Shown: positions 52,464 through 61,890 of the stretch, one piece after another
How positions within the stretch are numbered: the first letter of the stretch is position 1
Layout: each line of letters opens with the position of its first letter
Source: Candidatus Omnitrophota bacterium
GTDB lineage: Bacteria; Omnitrophota; Gorgyraeia; Zapsychrales; JAHFFX01
DNA: 64,000 bases
Assembly: GCA_023247725.1 (NCBI GenBank)
Contig: JAHFFW010000008.1
Span: 7,359 to 71,358, forward strand
Reading direction: 5' to 3'
The notes under the pieces: model-generated
Databases searched by the model: none
Told to the model about the DNA's origin: nothing
Seen by the model: only the letters and a program-made list of their open reading frames with translations
Position numbers and translations under genes: made by a program

Positions 52464-52711
52464 GTGGATGAGTGGAGACCTACGGCTGGCCGATGGCCAC
52501 AATATAGACGCACGATGGAAGAGCTGATTGAGGCTGTTGCTGGATGGTAATGGATGAAGCAATTAACCCGCCTAATCGCTTCATAATTTGAAGCGGTTAA
52601 ATTCCCGCCTTTTACCTTTTGGCATATAGATTTCAAAAAGTATAATGCGAAAGGTAAATTCCAAATTTCCCTAACTGTTGACAGTTATTTATAAGTGTAT
52701 ACGCTTAGGGA

Positions 52712-52933: not shown

Positions 52934-53530
52934 ATGCAATATACTAATGATATTGTAGTTAACAGAATACATGGCCATGGTAGGGGATGGGTTTTTACGC
53001 CAAGCCATTTTTTTGACCTTGGAAGTCACTTTGCTGTAAGAAAAGCCCTTGAGAGGTTAGCGAAGCAGGGAACAATCCGGCGCCTTTCCCCAGGGCTTTA
53101 TGACTATCCCAGGCGCCATCCTGCGTTGGGAGATTTGGTTCCTAACTATGAGCAAATTGGTAAGGCATTGGCCGGACAGTATAAATTAAGGCTGCAACCT
53201 TCCGGAGCCTACGCTGCCAATCTTCTAGGTTTAACCGAGCAGGTTCCGGCCAAAATCGTTTTTTTGACTGATGGCCCCAATCGGAAATTAACTATCGGCA
53301 ATCAGCGAATCATCTTTAAAAGAACCACCCCCAAAAACATGGCGGCCGCAGGCCGTGTTAGCGGTTTAGTTATTCAGGCCTTACGCCATTTGGGAAAGAA
53401 TAATGTGGATGATGATACCATCGACAGGCTTAAAACGCGATTGAGTGATGATGACAAACAGCAGCTTCTCAAAGATATTTCGTGCGCTCCGGCTTGGATC
53501 GGCGCAATATTCAGAAAAATGGTGGAATAA
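52934..53530 (+). CDS. abiEi: AbiEi-family antitoxin/transcriptional regulator (type IV TA system, DUF6088-like)
   Basis: NRIHGHGRGWVFTPSHFFDLGS...LAKQGTIRRLSPGLYDYPR...LQPSGAYAANLLGLTEQVP matches the AbiEi family pattern. It is directly upstream of, and overlapping, a DUF1814 gene. Confidence 0.8.
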   Translation: MQYTNDIVVNRIHGHGRGWVFTPSHFFDLGSHFAVRKALERLAKQGTIRRLSPGLYDYPRRHPALGDLVPNYEQIGKALAGQYKLRLQPSGAYAANLLGLTEQVPAKIVFLTDGPNRKLTIGNQRIIFKRTTPKNMAAAGRVSGLVIQALRHLGKNNVDDDTIDRLKTRLSDDDKQQLLKDISCAPAWIGAIFRKMVE

Positions 53531-54558
53531 TGGATCGATTTGCAGTCTTGCCTGCTTCAGAGAAAATTCTTTATTTCGATACAATGGCCGGTAAACTTGG
53601 GATCTCGCCGGAGATGGTCGAGAAAGATTTTTGGGGTTGCTGGACACTGGAGAAACTTTTCACATTAAAGGATATTGGAGCGCACATCACATTTAAGGGC
53701 GGCACCTCGCTCTCCAAGTGCTACAACGCCATTGAACGTTTCTCGGAAGATGTTGATATTGCCATTGAAAGAAAATATCTGGAACATGGCAAAGATATTG
53801 AGCCGTCGGTTGATGTCAGCAATAAGGAAAATCAGCGACGCATCGAAGAATTGATGGCTTCCGCCAGGACAGCCATTCGCAAGCAGATTCTTCCGGAGTT
53901 ACGACGGCAAGCTGAAAAGATCCTTGGAAAGAGTGGTCAATGGTCGATAGATTTGGATCCCAAAGATCCGCTCGAGCAGACACTTCTGTTTGTTTTTCCA
54001 AAAGCTGTCATAAAAACGGATCGCGAATATGTAATGCCTATAGTTAAGATTGAGTTAGGCGCCCGTTCAGATGATTGGCCGGCGCAATCTGTTCATATCT
54101 TCCCCTACGTAGCTGAAGTTTTACATGATGCGTTAGTCGTTCAGCCCATCACCGTCAAGGTTTTATCGGCGGAGAGGACATTTTGGGAGAAGGCGATGAT
54201 CCTTCACCGGCTTTATCACTCTCCCGAAGAGAAGACTGTTTCAAAACGTATGTCACGGCATTATTATGATCTATATGCGATGAGTAAGGCTGGAATATTT
54301 GATAGGGCGCTTAAGGATGTTGGGTTGATGCGCAGTGTCGTTGAGTTCAATAGACTTTTCTTTCGATATTCTTGGCTAAATTATGACGAGGCCAAGCGCG
54401 GGACTTTCCGCTTGGTTCCTAAGGATGCTGAGCGGATTAAGAGCCTGAAAATTGACTACCGGCAAATGGAGCAAATGTTTTTCAAGGATCAACCGGCGTT
54501 TGATCGGATTATAGAAAGACTTAAAGAGATAGAAGATAAAATTAATGACCAAAAATAA
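53530..54558 (+). CDS. abiEii: AbiEii/AbiGii-family nucleotidyltransferase toxin (DUF1814)
   Basis: EKDFW...[23 protein letters not shown] is the DUF1814 signature. ATAATG overlap with abiEi. Confidence 0.85.
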
Positions 54559-54700
54559 ATCAACCGGCATCAAATCATGGCCATTGGATGACAGGCCAAG
54601 AGAGAAATTGCTTAAAAAAGGCGCGGACGCTTTGAGTAATTCTGAACTCTTGGCAATTTTGTTGCGCACGGGGAACCTAAAAGAAGAAGAGAGGACGTAA
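54545..54700 (+). pseudogene. radC: Remnant (51 aa) of a RadC-family (UPF0758/JAB) protein N-terminus, truncated at the hsdM start
   Basis: [43 protein letters not shown] is the canonical RadC N-terminal HhH region. It then diverges and stops in a TAATG overlap with hsdM. Confidence 0.6.
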
Positions 54701-56160
54701 TGTTTGAGCAAGTTTTCAAGAATATTGACGACATCCTTCACAAAGATGCAGGGTGCAGTAGCGAGCTTGATTATGTGGAGCAGACTTCATGGGTTCTCTT
54801 TCTGAAATATTTGGATGATCTTGAGAAAGACAAGAAGACCGCGGCCAAATTGGCGGGCAAGACGTATTCAAATATTATCGGTCCGGAATATCGTTGGGAT
54901 GTATGGGCAACGCCCAAAGACAATGATGGCAAGCTGGATCATCACAAAGCACTAACGGGCGATGACCTTAAAGATTTTGTTGACCACAAATTGTTTCCCT
55001 ATCTGAAAAAGTTTAAAACCAGCGCCCAGAGCCCCGACACCATTGAATACAAAATCGGCGAGATTTTCAGCGAACTTAAAAACAAAATCCAGAGCGGTTA
55101 CAATCTCCGCGAGGTCATCAACTTAATTGATCAGCTTCGTTTTCGTTCTCATGCCGAGAAGCATGAAATGTCGCATCTTTATGAAGACAAGATCAAGAAT
55201 ATGGGCAACGCCGGACGTAACGGCGGCGAATACTACACGCCCCGTCCGCTGATCAAAACGATTGTCAAGGTAGTTGCACCTGAAATCGGCAATAAAATTT
55301 ATGATGGTGCGGTCGGGTCAGCGGGCTTTTTGTGCGAAGCCTTTGAGTATCTTAAATCTCAAAAGAATCTAACAACCAAAGACGCGCAGACGCTTCAGAA
55401 AAACACTTTCTACGGCAAAGAAAAGAAATCCCTCGCCTATATCATCGGCACGATGAATATGATTCTGCACGGCATTGAAGCGCCCAATATTGTGCATACC
55501 AACACGCTGGCTGAAAACCTCGCTGATATTCAAGAGAAAGACCGTTATACAATCGTCCTTGCCAATCCGCCGTTCGGCGGTAAAGAACGAGCCGAGGTTC
55601 AGCAAAATTTTTCGATAAGAACCGGCGAAACCGCGTTTTTGTTTCTTCAACATTTTATTAAGATCTTGAAAGCCGGCGGCCGTGCGGGTGTAGTCATTAA
55701 GAATACATTTCTTTCCAATACTGACAATGCCTCGATCAGCCTGCGCAAACTACTTTTAGAAAGCTGTAATTTACACACGGTACTTGATCTTCCCGGCGGC
55801 ACATTCACCGGCGCAGGAGTCAAGACTGTGGTTTTGTCTTTTGAGAAAGGCACGTCGACCAAGAAAGTCTGGTTTTATCAACTTAACCTTGGCCGCAACC
55901 TCGGCAAGACCAACCCGCTCAATGAAAACGATCTGGCCGATTTTGTGAAATTGCAGAAATCAAAAGCGGATTCGGAAAATTCATGGACGGTCAATGTGGC
56001 GGATGTGGATAAGGTTACTTTCGATTTGTCCGTCAAGAATCCGCATAGAAAAGATGAAACGACTTTGCGCGAACCGAAGGAAATATTGGCTTCAATGAAA
56101 AAGCTGGATGAAGAGAATAAGGAAATAATGCAAGAAATCAGTCGGATAATAGGAGATTAA
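54700..56160 (+). CDS. hsdM: Type I restriction-modification system methyltransferase subunit (N6-adenine)
   Basis: HsdM N-terminal domain, SAM motif and LANPPFGGKE (NPPF). Confidence 0.93.
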   Translation: MFEQVFKNIDDILHKDAGCSSELDYVEQTSWVLFLKYLDDLEKDKKTAAKLAGKTYSNIIGPEYRWDVWATPKDNDGKLDHHKALTGDDLKDFVDHKLFPYLKKFKTSAQSPDTIEYKIGEIFSELKNKIQSGYNLREVINLIDQLRFRSHAEKHEMSHLYEDKIKNMGNAGRNGGEYYTPRPLIKTIVKVVAPEIGNKIYDGAVGSAGFLCEAFEYLKSQKNLTTKDAQTLQKNTFYGKEKKSLAYIIGTMNMILHGIEAPNIVHTNTLAENLADIQEKDRYTIVLANPPFGGKERAEVQQNFSIRTGETAFLFLQHFIKILKAGGRAGVVIKNTFLSNTDNASISLRKLLLESCNLHTVLDLPGGTFTGAGVKTVVLSFEKGTSTKKVWFYQLNLGRNLGKTNPLNENDLADFVKLQKSKADSENSWTVNVADVDKVTFDLSVKNPHRKDETTLREPKEILASMKKLDEENKEIMQEISRIIGD

Positions 56161-56181: not shown

Positions 56182-57147
56182 ATGCCTCCAGAGAACTTTG
56201 AACAATTTAAAGCAAAGCATGAAGCATGGAAAAAGTGTCTTTCCGGTGAAGATCGCAATTCTGTGTTCAATCAAATCTTTCGGATGGTTTGGAATGCCGC
56301 AGTTTTTAAAATAATTAACGAGGCACGCAGGATTTCTCCGACAGATACAAAAGGTCAGATTAAAATTAATGGGATGGTGCATCATTTTTTAGACAGGTGC
56401 TTCTTTGACAGCCAGTTTCTGGCTGTTCGACGGTTGACAGATGCGGCATACACATTAGAGGATGCCAAGAAAGGGATATTTTCTTTGACTGCATTATTAA
56501 ATGATATGAAAGCAAATATCTCTCTAATGACTCGCGCAAATCTTTTCGCAGTTGAAAACCTTGAATATGATCCTACGGGAATTCAGCAACGAGAATTGCA
56601 ATATGCTTTTGAACAATCCAAAAATGGGAAAGGCGCATATTGGTCATCTTTTAAAGGAAGTAGTCATGACATAACGTCCAGACATGATCAGATTGACGTT
56701 CTTTGTGGAACATCCGCCGATCAGCGCAAGCCATCTGATACTATTCGGGGAGAAATCTTTGATTATTTACTTAAGCGGACAAAGGATGCTTCAGAAGACG
56801 TTAATCTGCACGTTAATAAATACATCGCTCATGCCGCAACGCCTGATAGCCGCGAATATTCTAAAGCAGGCGAGGTGTCTATTACTTTAGATCATTTATG
56901 GGGCGCGCATAAAGTAATTTGTCAGGTCGCTAATTTTGTTGATGTATATATGCTTTCGAGAGCCCATTATAGCTTCTTGCCAGTTCCGCAATATGACCAT
57001 TTTGAACATATTGATGAGTTTTTGGTTTCCGCAGAGGGAGTGGATGCTTTAAGTAACGCATGGCATCAATTTCAGAAAGACACAGATTCTTGGGCGTCAT
57101 GGGGAATGAAAGAGTTGCAGGAAGAAATATTGCAGAAAAATGAATAG
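56182..57147 (+). CDS. Unknown 321-aa protein embedded between hsdM and hsdS (candidate defence/Abi-type effector; no family recognised)
   Basis: Complete ORF, translationally coupled (8-nt overlap with hsdS), AT-richer than hsdM. No methylase, specificity-subunit or nuclease motifs were found by eye. Confidence 0.5.
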   Translation: MPPENFEQFKAKHEAWKKCLSGEDRNSVFNQIFRMVWNAAVFKIINEARRISPTDTKGQIKINGMVHHFLDRCFFDSQFLAVRRLTDAAYTLEDAKKGIFSLTALLNDMKANISLMTRANLFAVENLEYDPTGIQQRELQYAFEQSKNGKGAYWSSFKGSSHDITSRHDQIDVLCGTSADQRKPSDTIRGEIFDYLLKRTKDASEDVNLHVNKYIAHAATPDSREYSKAGEVSITLDHLWGAHKVICQVANFVDVYMLSRAHYSFLPVPQYDHFEHIDEFLVSAEGVDALSNAWHQFQKDTDSWASWGMKELQEEILQKNE

Positions 57148-58426
57148 AACAATTAAACAATTAGAGTCGAATCAGGCAAGCACTGCTTGGCAAACCAAAA
57201 CGCTTGGCGAGGCTTGCGAAGTCTTTGCCGATGGGGATTGGATAGAGAAGAAAGACCAAGCAACAAGCGGTATACGGCTTATACAGACTGGCAATATTGG
57301 GAATGGATATTTTTTAGATAGAGGTGAGAAAGCACGGTATATTTCAGAAGGTACATTTAAAAGATTGCGATGTACAGAAGTTTTGCCGGGTGATTGTTTG
57401 CTTTCCAGATTACCCGATCCAGTAGGAAGGGCAGGTCTTATCCCTGATACAGGGCAAAAAATGATTACTGCGGTTGATTGCACAATCATGCGTTTCAAAA
57501 AAGATACTTTGCCTAAATGGTTTATTTATTATTCTTTGTCTCCAGACTATCAAAACGAAATTAACAAAGAGGTCACTGGAGCGACACGTCAACGTATCAG
57601 CAGAAGTAATTTAGGCAATATTAAACTTCCAATCCCCCCGCTCCCCGAACAGAAACGGATTGTTAAGATTTTAGATGATGTTTTTGAAAAAACCGCCAAG
57701 GCCAAAGAAAATGCCGAGAAGAATCTGCAAAACACCCGGGAACTTTTTGAATCGTATTTGCAGGGTGTGTTTGCTGATTCTGGCGATGGATGGGAAGAAA
57801 AGAAGCTGGGGGATAACAATATTCTTGAAATTATCGATGGCGACCGAGGAGTTAATTATCCTGAGAAGTCGGATTTTCTAGATCGAGGTTATTGTCTTTT
57901 TCTGAATACTAAGAATGTACGTCCTGATGGGTTTAATTTTGATACAGCAATGTTTATTTCGAAAGAAAAAGATAATGCTTTACGCAAAGGGAAACTTCAG
58001 CGAAATGATGTAATCCTCACGACCAGAGGAACAATCGGTAATCTAGCTGTTTATGATAGCAACGTTAGTTATGAGAATATCAGAATCAATTCGGGTATGC
58101 TTGTTTTTAGACCGAAGGTAGAAAAATTATTGCCTTCTTTTCTCTTTGAGGTATTCCGGTCTGGAATTATGAAAAATCAAATTTCTCGGCATGTGTCGGG
58201 CGCGGCTCAGCCTCAATTACCGATTAAGACTTTGGTAAATTTTACGATTCCCGTGCCCAATAGTATCGATGAGCAAAAGAAAATCGTTGATCGCCTTAGA
58301 GAAATTTCAGCCGAAACCAAAAAACTCGAAGCTATCTATCAGCAAAAGCTCGCTAACTTGGAAGAGTTAAGAAAATCAATATTACAAAAAGCGTTCAATG
58401 GCGAACTTGTAGAGGCAAACGTATGA
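57140..58426 (+). CDS. hsdS: Type I R-M specificity subunit (two target-recognition domains)
   Basis: Conserved central and C-terminal HsdS repeats (RQRISRSNLGNIKLPIPPLPEQKRIVKILD...; LPIKTLVNFTIPVPNSIDEQKKIVDRL). Confidence 0.9.
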   Translation: MNRTIKQLESNQASTAWQTKTLGEACEVFADGDWIEKKDQATSGIRLIQTGNIGNGYFLDRGEKARYISEGTFKRLRCTEVLPGDCLLSRLPDPVGRAGLIPDTGQKMITAVDCTIMRFKKDTLPKWFIYYSLSPDYQNEINKEVTGATRQRISRSNLGNIKLPIPPLPEQKRIVKILDDVFEKTAKAKENAEKNLQNTRELFESYLQGVFADSGDGWEEKKLGDNNILEIIDGDRGVNYPEKSDFLDRGYCLFLNTKNVRPDGFNFDTAMFISKEKDNALRKGKLQRNDVILTTRGTIGNLAVYDSNVSYENIRINSGMLVFRPKVEKLLPSFLFEVFRSGIMKNQISRHVSGAAQPQLPIKTLVNFTIPVPNSIDEQKKIVDRLREISAETKKLEAIYQQKLANLEELRKSILQKAFNGELVEANV

Positions 58427-60795
58427 ACGAAGCTGAAACAAGAGCGGAACTGATTGATCCGAAACTCAAGGAAAGCGGTTGGGGCGTGGTTGAGGGCTCC
58501 AAAGTCCTTCGGGAATATCACATCACTGCTGGCAAAATCCAAGTTGGCGGGGGCCGGGCTAAGCCGCTTATTGCCGATTATGTTCTTGTCTTTCATGGCC
58601 GCAAGCTGGCCGCGATTGAAGCTAAAAGCGATGAAGAAGAAGTCGGCGAAGGTGTCGCACAGGCCAAAAATTACGCCGAAAAAATGTGTTTGGAAACGAC
58701 TTATGCCGCCAACGGCAAAGAGATTTATCAAGTTTGCATGAAGACCGGCAAGGAAGGCCCGGTTGCCAAATTCCCCACTCCGCAGGAACTCTGGAACAAA
58801 ACATTTGCCCAAGAGAATCAGTGGCGGGATAAATTCAGCCATGTGCCTTTTGAGGATGTTGGCGGTACCAAGTACGTCCGCTATTATCAGGAAATCGCCG
58901 TCAATAATACCATGTCTTCAATTGCCGACGGCAAACAGCGTATTCTACTGACACTCGCGACAGGTACGGGAAAGACTTTTATTGCTTTTCAGATTGCGTG
59001 GAAACTTTATCATGCCCGCTGGAATTTAAAGCGTGACGGCGCGCGCAGGCCGCGTATTTTGTTTCTGGCTGACAGAAATATTTTGGCTGATCAGGCATTC
59101 AATGATTTTTCATCCTTCCCCGAAGACGTGTTAGTGCGGATTAATCCTAAAGAAATCAGTAAAAAAGGAAGTGTGCCGACCAATGGAAGTATTTTCTTTA
59201 CCATCTTTCAAACATTTATGAGCGGCAAAAATAACACGCCATATTTCGGGGAATACCCAGCGGATTATTTTGACTTTATCATCATTGACGAATGCCATCG
59301 GGGCGGCGCCAACGACGAAGGCAACTGGCGAGGGATTTTAGAATATTTTTCGCCTGCTGTTCAACTGGGGTTGACCGCGACACCCAAACGCCGGGACAAT
59401 GTGGACACTTATCGCTATTTCGGCGATCCGGTTTATATTTATTCGCTTAAAGAAGGCATCAACGACGGATTTTTAACGCCGTTTAAGGTTAAACGGATCA
59501 AGACAACCCTAGACGATTATATTTACACATCCGACGATCAGATTGTTGAGGGTGAAGTTGAAGAAGGCAAGATTTATAAAGAGCCTGATTTCAATAAAAT
59601 TATTGAGATCAAAGAACGCGAAGCCAAACGGGTGAAGATATTTCTTTCTGAAATCAATCAGAATGAAAAGGCGATAGTTTTTTGTGCCAATCAAGACCAC
59701 GCGGCGGCGGTGCGGGATTTGATCAACCAGTATAAAAAAAGCCCAGAGCCAAATTACTGCGTGCGGGTTACCGCTAACGACGGCGCGTTAGGTGATCAAT
59801 ATTTGCGTGATTTTCGGGATAATGAAAAAACTATCCCGACGATTTTAACAACTTCACAAAAGCTGTCCACCGGCGTGGATGCCCGCAATATCCGTAACAT
59901 TATCCTTATGCGCCAGATTAATTCGATGATTGAGTTTAAACAGATTATTGGACGCGGCACACGATTATTCGATGGAAAAGAATATTTTACCATTTATGAT
60001 TTTGTTGACGCATATCATCATTTTGCTGATCCCGAATGGGACGGTGAGCCGATTGTTGAGGTCTGTTCTAAGTGTCTGGAGAATCCCTGTGTCTGCGAGA
60101 AAACACCGCCGCGTCCATGTCCTCGATGTGGACAGAGGCCTTGTGTATGTGAGAAACCGCCAGAACCGCCCTGTCCAAGATGCGGAAAAAATCCTTGCGC
60201 GTGTCCCAGAAAAGTGAAAATCAAATTGCGTGACGGCAAGGAGCGCGAAATTCAACATATGATCGCAACTTCTTTTTGGAGTGCAGACGGCAAGCCGATT
60301 TCAGCCGAAGAATTTTTGAAGGGTCTGTTTGGGAAACTGCCTGATTTTTTTAAAAGTGAAGATGAACTGCGCAAAATCTGGTCTAGTCCTATTACACGTA
60401 AAGCATTGCTCGAAAATCTCGCTTCTGCCGGATACGGCAAGGACGAATTGACTACTTTACAGAAATTAATTGATGCTGAAAAAAGTGATCTGTTTGATGT
60501 TATCGAGTTCGTCTCTTTTGCGTTGAAGCCGATTACTAGAGAAAAACGTGTTGCTTTGGCACAATTTAAAATTTTTGCAGGCTTGGGTGATAAACAAAAA
60601 GATTTTTTAGAATTTGTGCTTTCCAAATATATTGAAACCGGCGTTGAGGAATTGGATCAGGAAAAACTCCCAGATCTTTTGACGCTCAAATATCAAGCCA
60701 TCAGTGATGCGGAGGATATCCTGGGTGGTGTGGACAATATCCGCACGACGTTTATTGAGTTTCAGAAGTATTTATATGAGAAAGCTGTTGTGTGA
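58423..60795 (+). CDS. hsdR: Type I restriction enzyme R subunit with unusual tandem Cys4 knuckle insertion
   Basis: HSDR_N N-terminus (MNEAETRAELIDPKLKESGW), helicase motifs I GTGKTF, II DECH, III LGLTATP, and a C-terminal EcoEI_R_C-like domain. A 47-aa insert at 60064-60204 carries three CxxC...CxC units. Confidence 0.88.
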   Translation: MNEAETRAELIDPKLKESGWGVVEGSKVLREYHITAGKIQVGGGRAKPLIADYVLVFHGRKLAAIEAKSDEEEVGEGVAQAKNYAEKMCLETTYAANGKEIYQVCMKTGKEGPVAKFPTPQELWNKTFAQENQWRDKFSHVPFEDVGGTKYVRYYQEIAVNNTMSSIADGKQRILLTLATGTGKTFIAFQIAWKLYHARWNLKRDGARRPRILFLADRNILADQAFNDFSSFPEDVLVRINPKEISKKGSVPTNGSIFFTIFQTFMSGKNNTPYFGEYPADYFDFIIIDECHRGGANDEGNWRGILEYFSPAVQLGLTATPKRRDNVDTYRYFGDPVYIYSLKEGINDGFLTPFKVKRIKTTLDDYIYTSDDQIVEGEVEEGKIYKEPDFNKIIEIKEREAKRVKIFLSEINQNEKAIVFCANQDHAAAVRDLINQYKKSPEPNYCVRVTANDGALGDQYLRDFRDNEKTIPTILTTSQKLSTGVDARNIRNIILMRQINSMIEFKQIIGRGTRLFDGKEYFTIYDFVDAYHHFADPEWDGEPIVEVCSKCLENPCVCEKTPPRPCPRCGQRPCVCEKPPEPPCPRCGKNPCACPRKVKIKLRDGKEREIQHMIATSFWSADGKPISAEEFLKGLFGKLPDFFKSEDELRKIWSSPITRKALLENLASAGYGKDELTTLQKLIDAEKSDLFDVIEFVSFALKPITREKRVALAQFKIFAGLGDKQKDFLEFVLSKYIETGVEELDQEKLPDLLTLKYQAISDAEDILGGVDNIRTTFIEFQKYLYEKAVV

Positions 60796-61278: not shown

Positions 61279-61890
61279 GTGAAGGTGGAAACTGAGAATC
61301 CCCGTATAGTTCTGGTAACAATTGGAATAATAGGAGGGGTTCTCTTAATTCAATGGTTTTCTAAAAGAAAAAAGCTTGAACAAGACTTATTAAATTATGG
61401 CGTCGAAATGCAGGCAAATGTCATCAAGAAAGGATGGGCATTCCGTGGCCTGCGAGATCTTCATATCCATTACGAAATCAACGGAAGAGAAGTCACTAAA
61501 GTCATTTCGGTAGATATTAGTCATGAGAATATAAAAAGTATGCCTATATTGATTGATCCCATGAACCCAAAAAGGGTTTTATATAATATGAGAAAGTTTG
61601 ATTTAAAAAAAGTCAGTGAAGATTCTGTTACCAATTTCAAAGAGAGATATGAAGCAAATAAAACTGATTATGATAAAGGTGCTGAAGAGGGATTCGAGGG
61701 GAAACCCATGAAGGAAAAGGAAAGTGCCGAATATATTCAAGGCTATGAAGATGGCGTTGAAGATCTTCATTACGACGAGGGATTTAAAGATGGATGTGAA
61801 GGGAAGCCTATGAAGGAAAATCCAAACGCTCAATACGAGGAAGGCTATAAAGATAGCATTGAAGATCGCCGTGAAGATGACAAAGAGTAA
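61279..61890 (+). CDS. Single-pass membrane protein (DUF3592-like N-terminal region) with acidic C-terminal repeats (EGFEGKPMKE..YxxGYEDG)
   Basis: GTG start, one TM helix, a VLIDPMNPKRVLY-type motif, and two approximately 25-aa repeats. Confidence 0.45.
   Translation: MKVETENPRIVLVTIGIIGGVLLIQWFSKRKKLEQDLLNYGVEMQANVIKKGWAFRGLRDLHIHYEINGREVTKVISVDISHENIKSMPILIDPMNPKRVLYNMRKFDLKKVSEDSVTNFKERYEANKTDYDKGAEEGFEGKPMKEKESAEYIQGYEDGVEDLHYDEGFKDGCEGKPMKENPNAQYEEGYKDSIEDRREDDKE

Follow-up and report, generated by a model that had tools for sequence, protein, structure and literature searches.

A gene embedded in a Type I restriction-modification operon

What function is served by a gene that sits inside a restriction-modification (R-M) operon and encodes no recognisable R-M subunit? 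The question is raised by a locus of a Candidatus Omnitrophota bacterium, in which a gene for a 321-aa protein, referred to here as X, separates hsdM from hsdS (Table 1). The window is the whole stretch of DNA that was analysed, 64,000 nucleotides of contig JAHFFW010000008.1. An earlier examination of the letters alone (the sequence-only reading) had described a 321-aa ORF with a 21-nt gap between hsdM and X, an 8-nt overlap between X and hsdS and a 4-nt overlap between hsdS and hsdR, and the ORF list and the raw sequence agree with this exactly. The operon holds a complete Type I R-M set, with HsdM (486 aa), HsdS (428 aa) and HsdR (790 aa) encoded adjacently on one strand, and HsdR belongs to the type IB family. 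In a sequence scan of the window, no strong promoter-like or terminator-like site was found between hsdM, X, hsdS and hsdR, and the best promoter-like sites, at 52619 and 52876, both lie 5' of abiEi. X would here be co-transcribed and translationally coupled with hsdM, hsdS and hsdR.

Table 1. Features of the window and gene order at loci where X homologues adjoin Type I genes (M, S and R denote hsdM, hsdS and hsdR; coordinates refer to the window)
Locus	Feature or gene order	Coordinates	Strand	Basis or remark
Window	AbiEi (DUF6088) / AbiEii toxin-antitoxin pair, directly 5' of hsdM	52934..54558	+	Pfam and PADLOC
Window	hsdM, Type I methyltransferase	54700..56160	+	N6_Mtase 6.7e-62, HsdM_N; PADLOC MTase_I 1.2e-162
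Window	gene X, ATG ORF, 321 aa	56182..57147	+	six-frame ORF list
Window	invariant Arg83-Arg84 dyad of X, C-terminal end of helix 64-86	56428..56433	+	70/70 sequences
Window	top-conserved motif of X, V211-N-K-Y-I-A-H217-A-A-T-P-D-S-R224	56812..56853	+	column counts
Window	hsdS, two-domain specificity subunit	57140..58426	+	Methylase_S 6.3e-35; PADLOC Specificity_I 1.7e-66
Window	hsdR, restriction subunit, EcoAI/FtnUII (type IB) family	58423..60795	+	NF046051 814 bits, full length; ResIII, EcoEI_R_C
Window	M-X-S-R
L004, L005	M-S-X-R
L013	M-181aa-S-X-AIPR-R
L015	M-S-566aa-X-R, then GmrSD
L016/L020	M-S-SMODS-SLATT-X-R
L019	M-S-?-X-R
L018, L036, L039	S-X			short contigs
L021	S-R-cyclase-PycTM-cyclase-X
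L022	R-HTH/Panacea-136aa-AHJR-like-X
L025	X-Schlafen/AlbA_2-R
L037/L038, L040	R-M-S-X

The GC content drops from ~0.50 to 0.42 at about 52,500 in the window, and the whole block of AbiE and hsd/X genes is therefore regarded as an island. Within this block, X (GC 0.402, GC3 0.351) has the same composition as hsdS (GC 0.396, GC3 0.347), whereas hsdM (0.444 and 0.511) and hsdR (0.445 and 0.448) differ. The description of X as richer in AT than its neighbours thus holds against hsdM and hsdR and fails against hsdS. In base composition, X and hsdS group together and apart from hsdM and hsdR, and their shared GC and GC3 suggest that the two entered the operon together as a cassette, or that they have a different history from that of hsdM and hsdR.

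Several other features of the island and its borders can be described. Its start at ~52,500 comes after a gene of the chlorite-dismutase family, and public gene calls place a 51-aa UPF0758_N (RadC N-terminal) fragment 5' of hsdM, at about 54545-54700. Residues 548-595 of HsdR (window 60064-60207) constitute a Cys/Pro-rich insert, CSKCLENPCVCEKTPPRPCPRCGQRPCVCEKPPEPPCPRCGKNPCACP, with three C-P-x-C-G-x-x-P-C-x-C-like units, which is located between the helicase core and EcoEI_R_C; the remainder is a full-length HsdR of the EcoAI family, and the insert may bind zinc. On the 3' side of hsdR, a 203-aa ORF (window 61279-61890) combines a hydrophobic segment at its N-terminus with an acidic motif that occurs twice (EGFEGKPMKE... 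/ DGCEGKPMKE...), and has a weak match to DUF7710 as its single assignment and none in PADLOC. Downstream, public gene calls list a 772-aa DUF6795-like protein as well as one that exceeds 1,250 aa.

Family placement of X

The absence of HsdM, HsdS and HsdR motifs from X, observed in the sequence-only reading, is borne out by Pfam, in which X has no Hsd match. Its exclusion of PrrC/RloC, Fic, Abi_2 and DUF4145 is also supported, with no ABC-ATPase, Fic, Abi_2 or DUF4145 match being detected. The sole Pfam match of X is to PF18734 (HEPN_AbiU2), with residues 74-253 aligned to profile positions 49-168 of 193, and its score of 19 bits (E = 0.001) falls below the gathering threshold of 26.8 bits. 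PF18734 is matched individually by 45 of the 70 aligned relatives at E <= 0.01 and by 19 of them at E <= 4e-6, which is about the gathering threshold (best value 5.5e-9). No other Pfam family was found in the 70 aligned relatives, and many X homologues carry precomputed PF18734 labels. Since its relatives match the profile individually, X is assigned to the AbiU2-like HEPN family, of which it is a divergent branch. By transitive homology it is shown to belong to a large family that has the AbiU2 (HEPN) abortive-infection proteins as distant relatives, and the earlier opinion that X could be placed in no family is superseded.

The family is large and widely distributed. A homologue search returned 118 clusters, mostly of 300-330 aa, with Omnitrophota and Planctomycetia among the named sources, and an exhaustive profile search gave 1,610 representatives (at 50% identity) at E <= 0.001, with 712 at E <= 1e-30. 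Together with ten residues that are invariant over 70 sequences, these numbers establish that X is a real gene. Searches seeded with the most divergent members added homologues from Pseudomonas aeruginosa, Xanthomonas and Stenotrophomonas, all annotated as 'hypothetical'; a single JGI record bears the name 'AbiU2'. The range of the family therefore covers Omnitrophota, Planctomycetota, Phycisphaerae and Pseudomonadota, including integrative and conjugative elements (ICEs) and plasmids of P. aeruginosa.

Other searches were negative. PADLOC-DB v2.0.0 returned no family for X at E <= 1, and the neighbouring genes matched MTase_I, Specificity_I, REase_I, AbiEi and AbiEii strongly. NCBIfam and PHROGs had no match to X, and the PDB sequences, searched with X as well as the family profile, yielded nothing relevant, the single match being EST1A (E = 0.34). 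No X homologue was detected by tblastn against phage genomes, and Foldseek of the X model against the BFVD viral structures returned nothing significant. A search for canonical lactococcal AbiU2 that started from the family's most divergent sequences retrieved nothing beyond additional ~300-aa proteins of the X family, and tblastn of the family member P0117 against plasmids gave no Lactococcus match.

Conserved residues and predicted structure

The AF2 model predicts an all-helical protein of 13 helices (pLDDT 88.5, pTM 0.88). Ten residues, W16, R83, R84, R118, D172, R182, A216, H217, R224 and W294, are invariant in 70/70 sequences. The most conserved segment surrounds H217 and takes the family form V-(N/D)-K-(F/Y)-(I/V)-A-H217-A-A-T-P-E-S-R224, in which K213 occurs in 62/70 sequences and A216, H217 and R224 do not vary. 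A common form of the HEPN motif is R-N-x-x-A-H. The N-K-[FY]-[IV]-A-H motif of the X family resembles this form, and H217 is presumed to be the HEPN-type catalytic histidine. Nevertheless, the canonical HEPN Rx4-6H is not conserved in the X family, where positions -4 to -6 from H217 are occupied by K (62/70), N/D and V/A/G, and R is confined to position -7, in 6/70 sequences.

The arginine missing from the H217 motif may be supplied from elsewhere in the protein, and we infer the R83-R84 dyad to be a candidate source. Mean-field direct coupling analysis (DCA), which was of low power (Meff ~215), weakly indicated that helix 64-86 is packed in parallel alongside helix 190-216 (F74-V211, F75-Y214), and the same low-powered analysis (Meff ~215) weakly linked helix 118-124 to Y214. 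Contacts between the helices as hinted by DCA would bring R83/R84 and R118 towards H217, a proximity that is suggestive only.

The loss of the canonical arginine allows another interpretation, in which X is a catalytically inactive HEPN derivative that serves nearby systems as an adaptor, sensing phage or binding RNA or nucleotides. Variation among the partner genes (AIPR, SMODS-SLATT, Pycsar-like, Schlafen/AlbA_2) would suit such an adaptor, as would the fusions in the X family to an N-terminal HTH (P0103, P0106) or to GGDEF (P0240). However, His217 and five arginines remain strictly invariant down to 28% identity, which is typical of catalysis, and lone copies of X have no partner to which a signal could be passed. 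An inactive adaptor is hence considered improbable.

Linkage to Type I hsd genes

Homology to X was the sole criterion for collecting loci, which came from a search with a 26-sequence subset of the alignment and were screened with hsd seeds from four operons and with Pfam. X homologues adjoin Type I hsd genes, on the same strand, in 15 of ~30 informative loci, which are not all independent since six share one hsd lineage. Within these six (L004, L005, L013, L015, L016 and L019), a single conserved Type I lineage, identities are 65-87% for HsdM and 64-88% for HsdR. The window HsdM and HsdR share only 23-30% identity with those of the six-locus lineage, whereas the window X is 42-66% identical to its X, and the TARA loci represent a third hsd lineage with a third gene order (R-M-S-X). 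The disparity between the identities of X and those of HsdM and HsdR indicates that X has moved between unrelated Type I systems, and as judged from these comparisons it has joined at least three of them. The recurrence of homologues that had been proposed as a check on the sequence-only reading was found, both in unrelated hsd operons and in other islands. Its view of X as an accessory gene of the defence type is sustained by homologues in or beside Type I hsd operons of at least three lineages, together with other defence cargo. It had, in addition, described genes inserted between hsdM and hsdS as characteristically accessory antiphage modules. For X this position is not typical; among the loci examined it is confined to the window, and X elsewhere follows the order S-X-R or R-M-S-X.

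Defence genes often lie beside hsd-linked X, and include AIPR, SMODS-SLATT, a Pycsar-like cyclase with PycTM, Schlafen/AlbA_2 and GmrSD. The hsdS-hsdR slot of the conserved Type I lineage looks like a hotspot for the swapping of defence cargo. At L004, L005, L013, L015, L016/L020 and L019 the contents of the slot differ by locus, comprising AIPR, SMODS with SLATT_4, an unknown 566-aa protein or unknown proteins of ~270-320 aa, and an X homologue is always present. At L021 (5464-7858), two genes with adenylate/guanylate-cyclase domains flank a PycTM effector gene in a Pycsar-like arrangement between hsdR and the X homologue, and these genes are followed by a DUF4238/SEC-C protein. The ~1,200-aa HsdR proteins of L015 (7963-11556) and L016 (7897-11532) show a weak C-terminal match to Peptidase_S24 in precomputed Pfam annotation; a putative HsdR-Peptidase_S24 fusion would be unusual for a Type I restriction subunit.

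The linkage raises the possibility that X is a guard similar to PrrC, with the Type I complex binding and inactivating X until a phage anti-restriction factor (a DNA mimic or Stp-like peptide) frees the toxin. X is embedded in Type I operons with reading frames that overlap or abut (window, L004, L013, L015 and L037), its linkage recurs over three hsd lineages, and its usual S-X-R position is that of prrC, the paradigm discussed in PMC3710099. On the other side, X has no counterpart of the ABC-ATPase domain that regulates PrrC/RloC, its partner Hsd proteins can be only 23-30% identical to one another and about half of X homologues have no hsd genes nearby. The divergence of the Hsd partners and the existence of homologues without hsd genes argue against an obligate protein-protein interface between X and Hsd. 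A guard of the PrrC type is thus unlikely, and less likely than an autonomous effector. The proposed tie of X to the HsdR bearing the Cys-rich insert also finds no support, given that X homologues occur with other HsdR families and, in about half of cases, without hsd genes.

A somewhat smaller chance than that of a PrrC-type guard is given to a portable variant of the idea. In this variant, the X family would be HEPN-derived enzymes with an active site rebuilt from Lys-x3-His and the invariant arginines, which as guards of Type I enzymes, without the ATPase module needed by PrrC/RloC, would detect when phage anti-restriction proteins inhibit these enzymes and respond with abortive infection. 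By analogy with AbiUii and AbiUi, X might instead be a general brake on nucleases, which is a less likely alternative to the portable guard. A brake on HsdR, in the role of modulator, would temper or time restriction by this subunit, in restriction alleviation or self-protection, and would not be an effector. Lactococcal AbiUi, which resembles a restriction endonuclease, gives resistance alone, and the addition of AbiUii lowers that resistance (PMC13064643); moreover, in most operons X separates hsdR from the genes for methylation. Lone homologues without a nuclease partner are nevertheless common, and so many invariant charged residues are more suggestive of an enzyme, or of a site that binds nucleic acid, than of a simple inhibitor. 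The brake on HsdR is accordingly rated as doubtful, a shade below the portable guard and just above the inactive adaptor.

Occurrence outside hsd operons

About half of X homologues are also without defence neighbours of any kind. Single copies occur between housekeeping genes at L010, L017, L026, L031 and L032, with serA/ilvD, flagellar genes, glycosidases and CsgG as neighbours. One homologue is found in a mutS-X-Phd/PIN-Fic toxin-antitoxin island, and others are carried on ICE-like elements of Pseudomonas and Xanthomonas or are plasmid-borne. The proportion of loci without hsd genes, together with the ICE, plasmid and lone copies, indicates that X prefers Type I operons and is not an obligate partner of them. 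On this comparison of loci, X is a mobile accessory gene.

The solitary copies between housekeeping genes might suggest that X is not a defence gene at all, and that a housekeeping or selfish gene of unrelated function is hitch-hiking in variable regions. Against this, the distribution of X is patchy and mobile, extending over ICEs, plasmids and islands, and the genes co-embedded with X are known defence modules. Type I genes are estimated to make up well under 1% of a genome, and their presence at roughly half of the loci is far above the chance expectation. A role outside defence is therefore very improbable, and the least probable of the explanations considered here.

Two of the dispersed copies have unusual surroundings. 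On the mobilizable 9-kb Sphingomonas plasmid pA46BH2 (L043, 1404-4017), the start of the X homologue is overlapped by a small gene annotated 'DNA-binding protein', and a 'restriction endonuclease' gene in convergent orientation directly adjoins the homologue. This arrangement is reminiscent of a toxin-antitoxin pair and would fit the HTH-X fusions P0103 and P0106. In Stenotrophomonas maltophilia (L009, 9546-12981), a distant homologue (29% identity) lies between Peptidase_S24 (umuD-like) and IMS (umuC-like) genes with overlapping frames, and an NYN/OST-HTH protein is next. A link between X and Peptidase_S24, considered on account of this umuD-X-umuC arrangement and the weak S24 matches in the L015 and L016 HsdR proteins, was abandoned as it is absent from the Xanthomonas and Pseudomonas loci.

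Proposed function of X

An autonomous HEPN-type effector is the reading that best fits a mobile, fast-evolving single-gene family with enzyme-like invariant polar residues and a preference for Type I operons that is not obligate. X would be a divergent, full-length member of the AbiU2-like HEPN proteins and a mobile accessory defence gene that has been repeatedly captured by Type I R-M operons. The protein would be a latent nucleic-acid-targeting enzyme, most probably an RNase, which acts as a second-line defence of the abortive-infection type once a phage escapes restriction. Its active site would be built round the invariant His217 of the (N/D)-K-x-x-A-H motif, with the near-invariant Lys213 and the invariant R83, R84, R118, R182 and R224 replacing the canonical HEPN arginine. 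X would work autonomously, sharing expression and inheritance with the R-M genes and needing no contact with Hsd proteins. For X as an autonomous AbiU2-like HEPN effector, probably an RNase, in second-line defence co-expressed with restriction, the probability is put at about 0.45. The RNase chemistry, the latency, the trigger and the abortive outcome are what we infer; family membership, conservation, recurrent Type I linkage and mobility are demonstrated.

The effector reading is favoured by the invariant histidine motif, the five invariant arginines and the one invariant Asp, which would be in keeping with an active site. Autonomy is favoured by the lone homologues among housekeeping genes, the toxin-antitoxin island, the ICEs and the plasmids, and a role in defence by the known defence modules with which X is co-embedded. 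Precedents may be seen in the AbiU2 HEPN proteins of R-M operons and in the HEPN protein HEC-08, whose defence depends on the motif histidine. Conversely, the PF18734 score is sub-threshold, the arginine of Rx4-6H is not conserved, PADLOC has no entry for X and about half of homologues are without defence neighbours. By analogy, lactococcal AbiUii may also count against an effector, as the only namesake studied experimentally does not suffice for defence and reduces AbiUi activity.

The X family is widespread and uncharacterised, with ~1,600 representatives at 50% identity. If it protects against phage, a common single-gene system would be added to the defence catalogues, and demonstration of such protection would clarify the role of AbiU2-type HEPN proteins, the one studied example of which is a damper. 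Furthermore, such a demonstration would provide a test of whether a HEPN site without the canonical arginine can still be a nuclease.

Comparison with known systems

The sequence-only reading had considered X a candidate for a previously undescribed effector, a description that is unsupported for a divergent relative of HEPN_AbiU2, since AbiU2 in R-M operons is already covered in PMC3710099. In that work (Anantharaman et al. 2013, PMC3710099, Table 1), AbiU2-family HEPN proteins are listed in 'R-M operons', the Rx4-6H motif is given as conserved in AbiU2, and a layered defence of HEPN plus R-M is proposed on the PrrC model. AbiU2 in R-M operons is hence known in outline, and guilt-by-embedding in Type I R-M is already an established concept. 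What is new here is the size and spread of the ~300-aa subfamily, the non-canonical motif, the movement between unrelated Type I systems and the absence from PADLOC-DB v2.0.0, which was the sole defence-system database behind this statement.

X shares with AbiU2/AbiUii and PF18734 the sole matched profile, a predicted all-helical fold, an invariant His in x-x-A-H and occurrence in R-M operons. In contrast to the Rx4-6H reported as conserved in AbiU2, the X family has (N/D)-K-x-x-A-H-x6-R, and X falls below the gathering threshold. The partners also differ, being AbiUi for AbiUii and the Type I R-M system for X. AbiUi confers resistance alone, whereas AbiUii is insufficient for defence and lowers AbiUi activity (PMC13064643), so that AbiUii dampens defence and does not confer it.

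PrrC and RloC are members of the HEPN superfamily that are embedded in Type I hsd operons, typically in the hsdS-hsdR slot, and serve as a backup when restriction is neutralised. X has in common with them its embedding in a Type I hsd operon (here M-X-S-R, with 15 loci hsd-linked). Unlike them, it has no N-terminal ABC/Rad50-like ATPase domain (Pfam, NCBIfam and PADLOC) and no Pfam match to the PrrC/RloC families; at 321 aa it is half their size, and many of its homologues lie outside R-M operons.

TgvAB of Vibrio cholerae VPI-2 is, like X, embedded in a Type I R-M operon, and it works alone; however, it is a two-protein, GmrSD-like type IV DNA restriction module with no sequence or fold relation to X. 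HEC-08 (DUF3644) resembles X in that one gene, lying within a defence system of several genes, encodes a HEPN protein; it belongs to a different HEPN family, and its defence is abolished by mutation of the motif histidine (Payne et al. 2024). The same study formalised 'guilt-by-embedding' for Type I R-M, and X follows this pattern, recurring embedded in unrelated Type I operons and also outside them.
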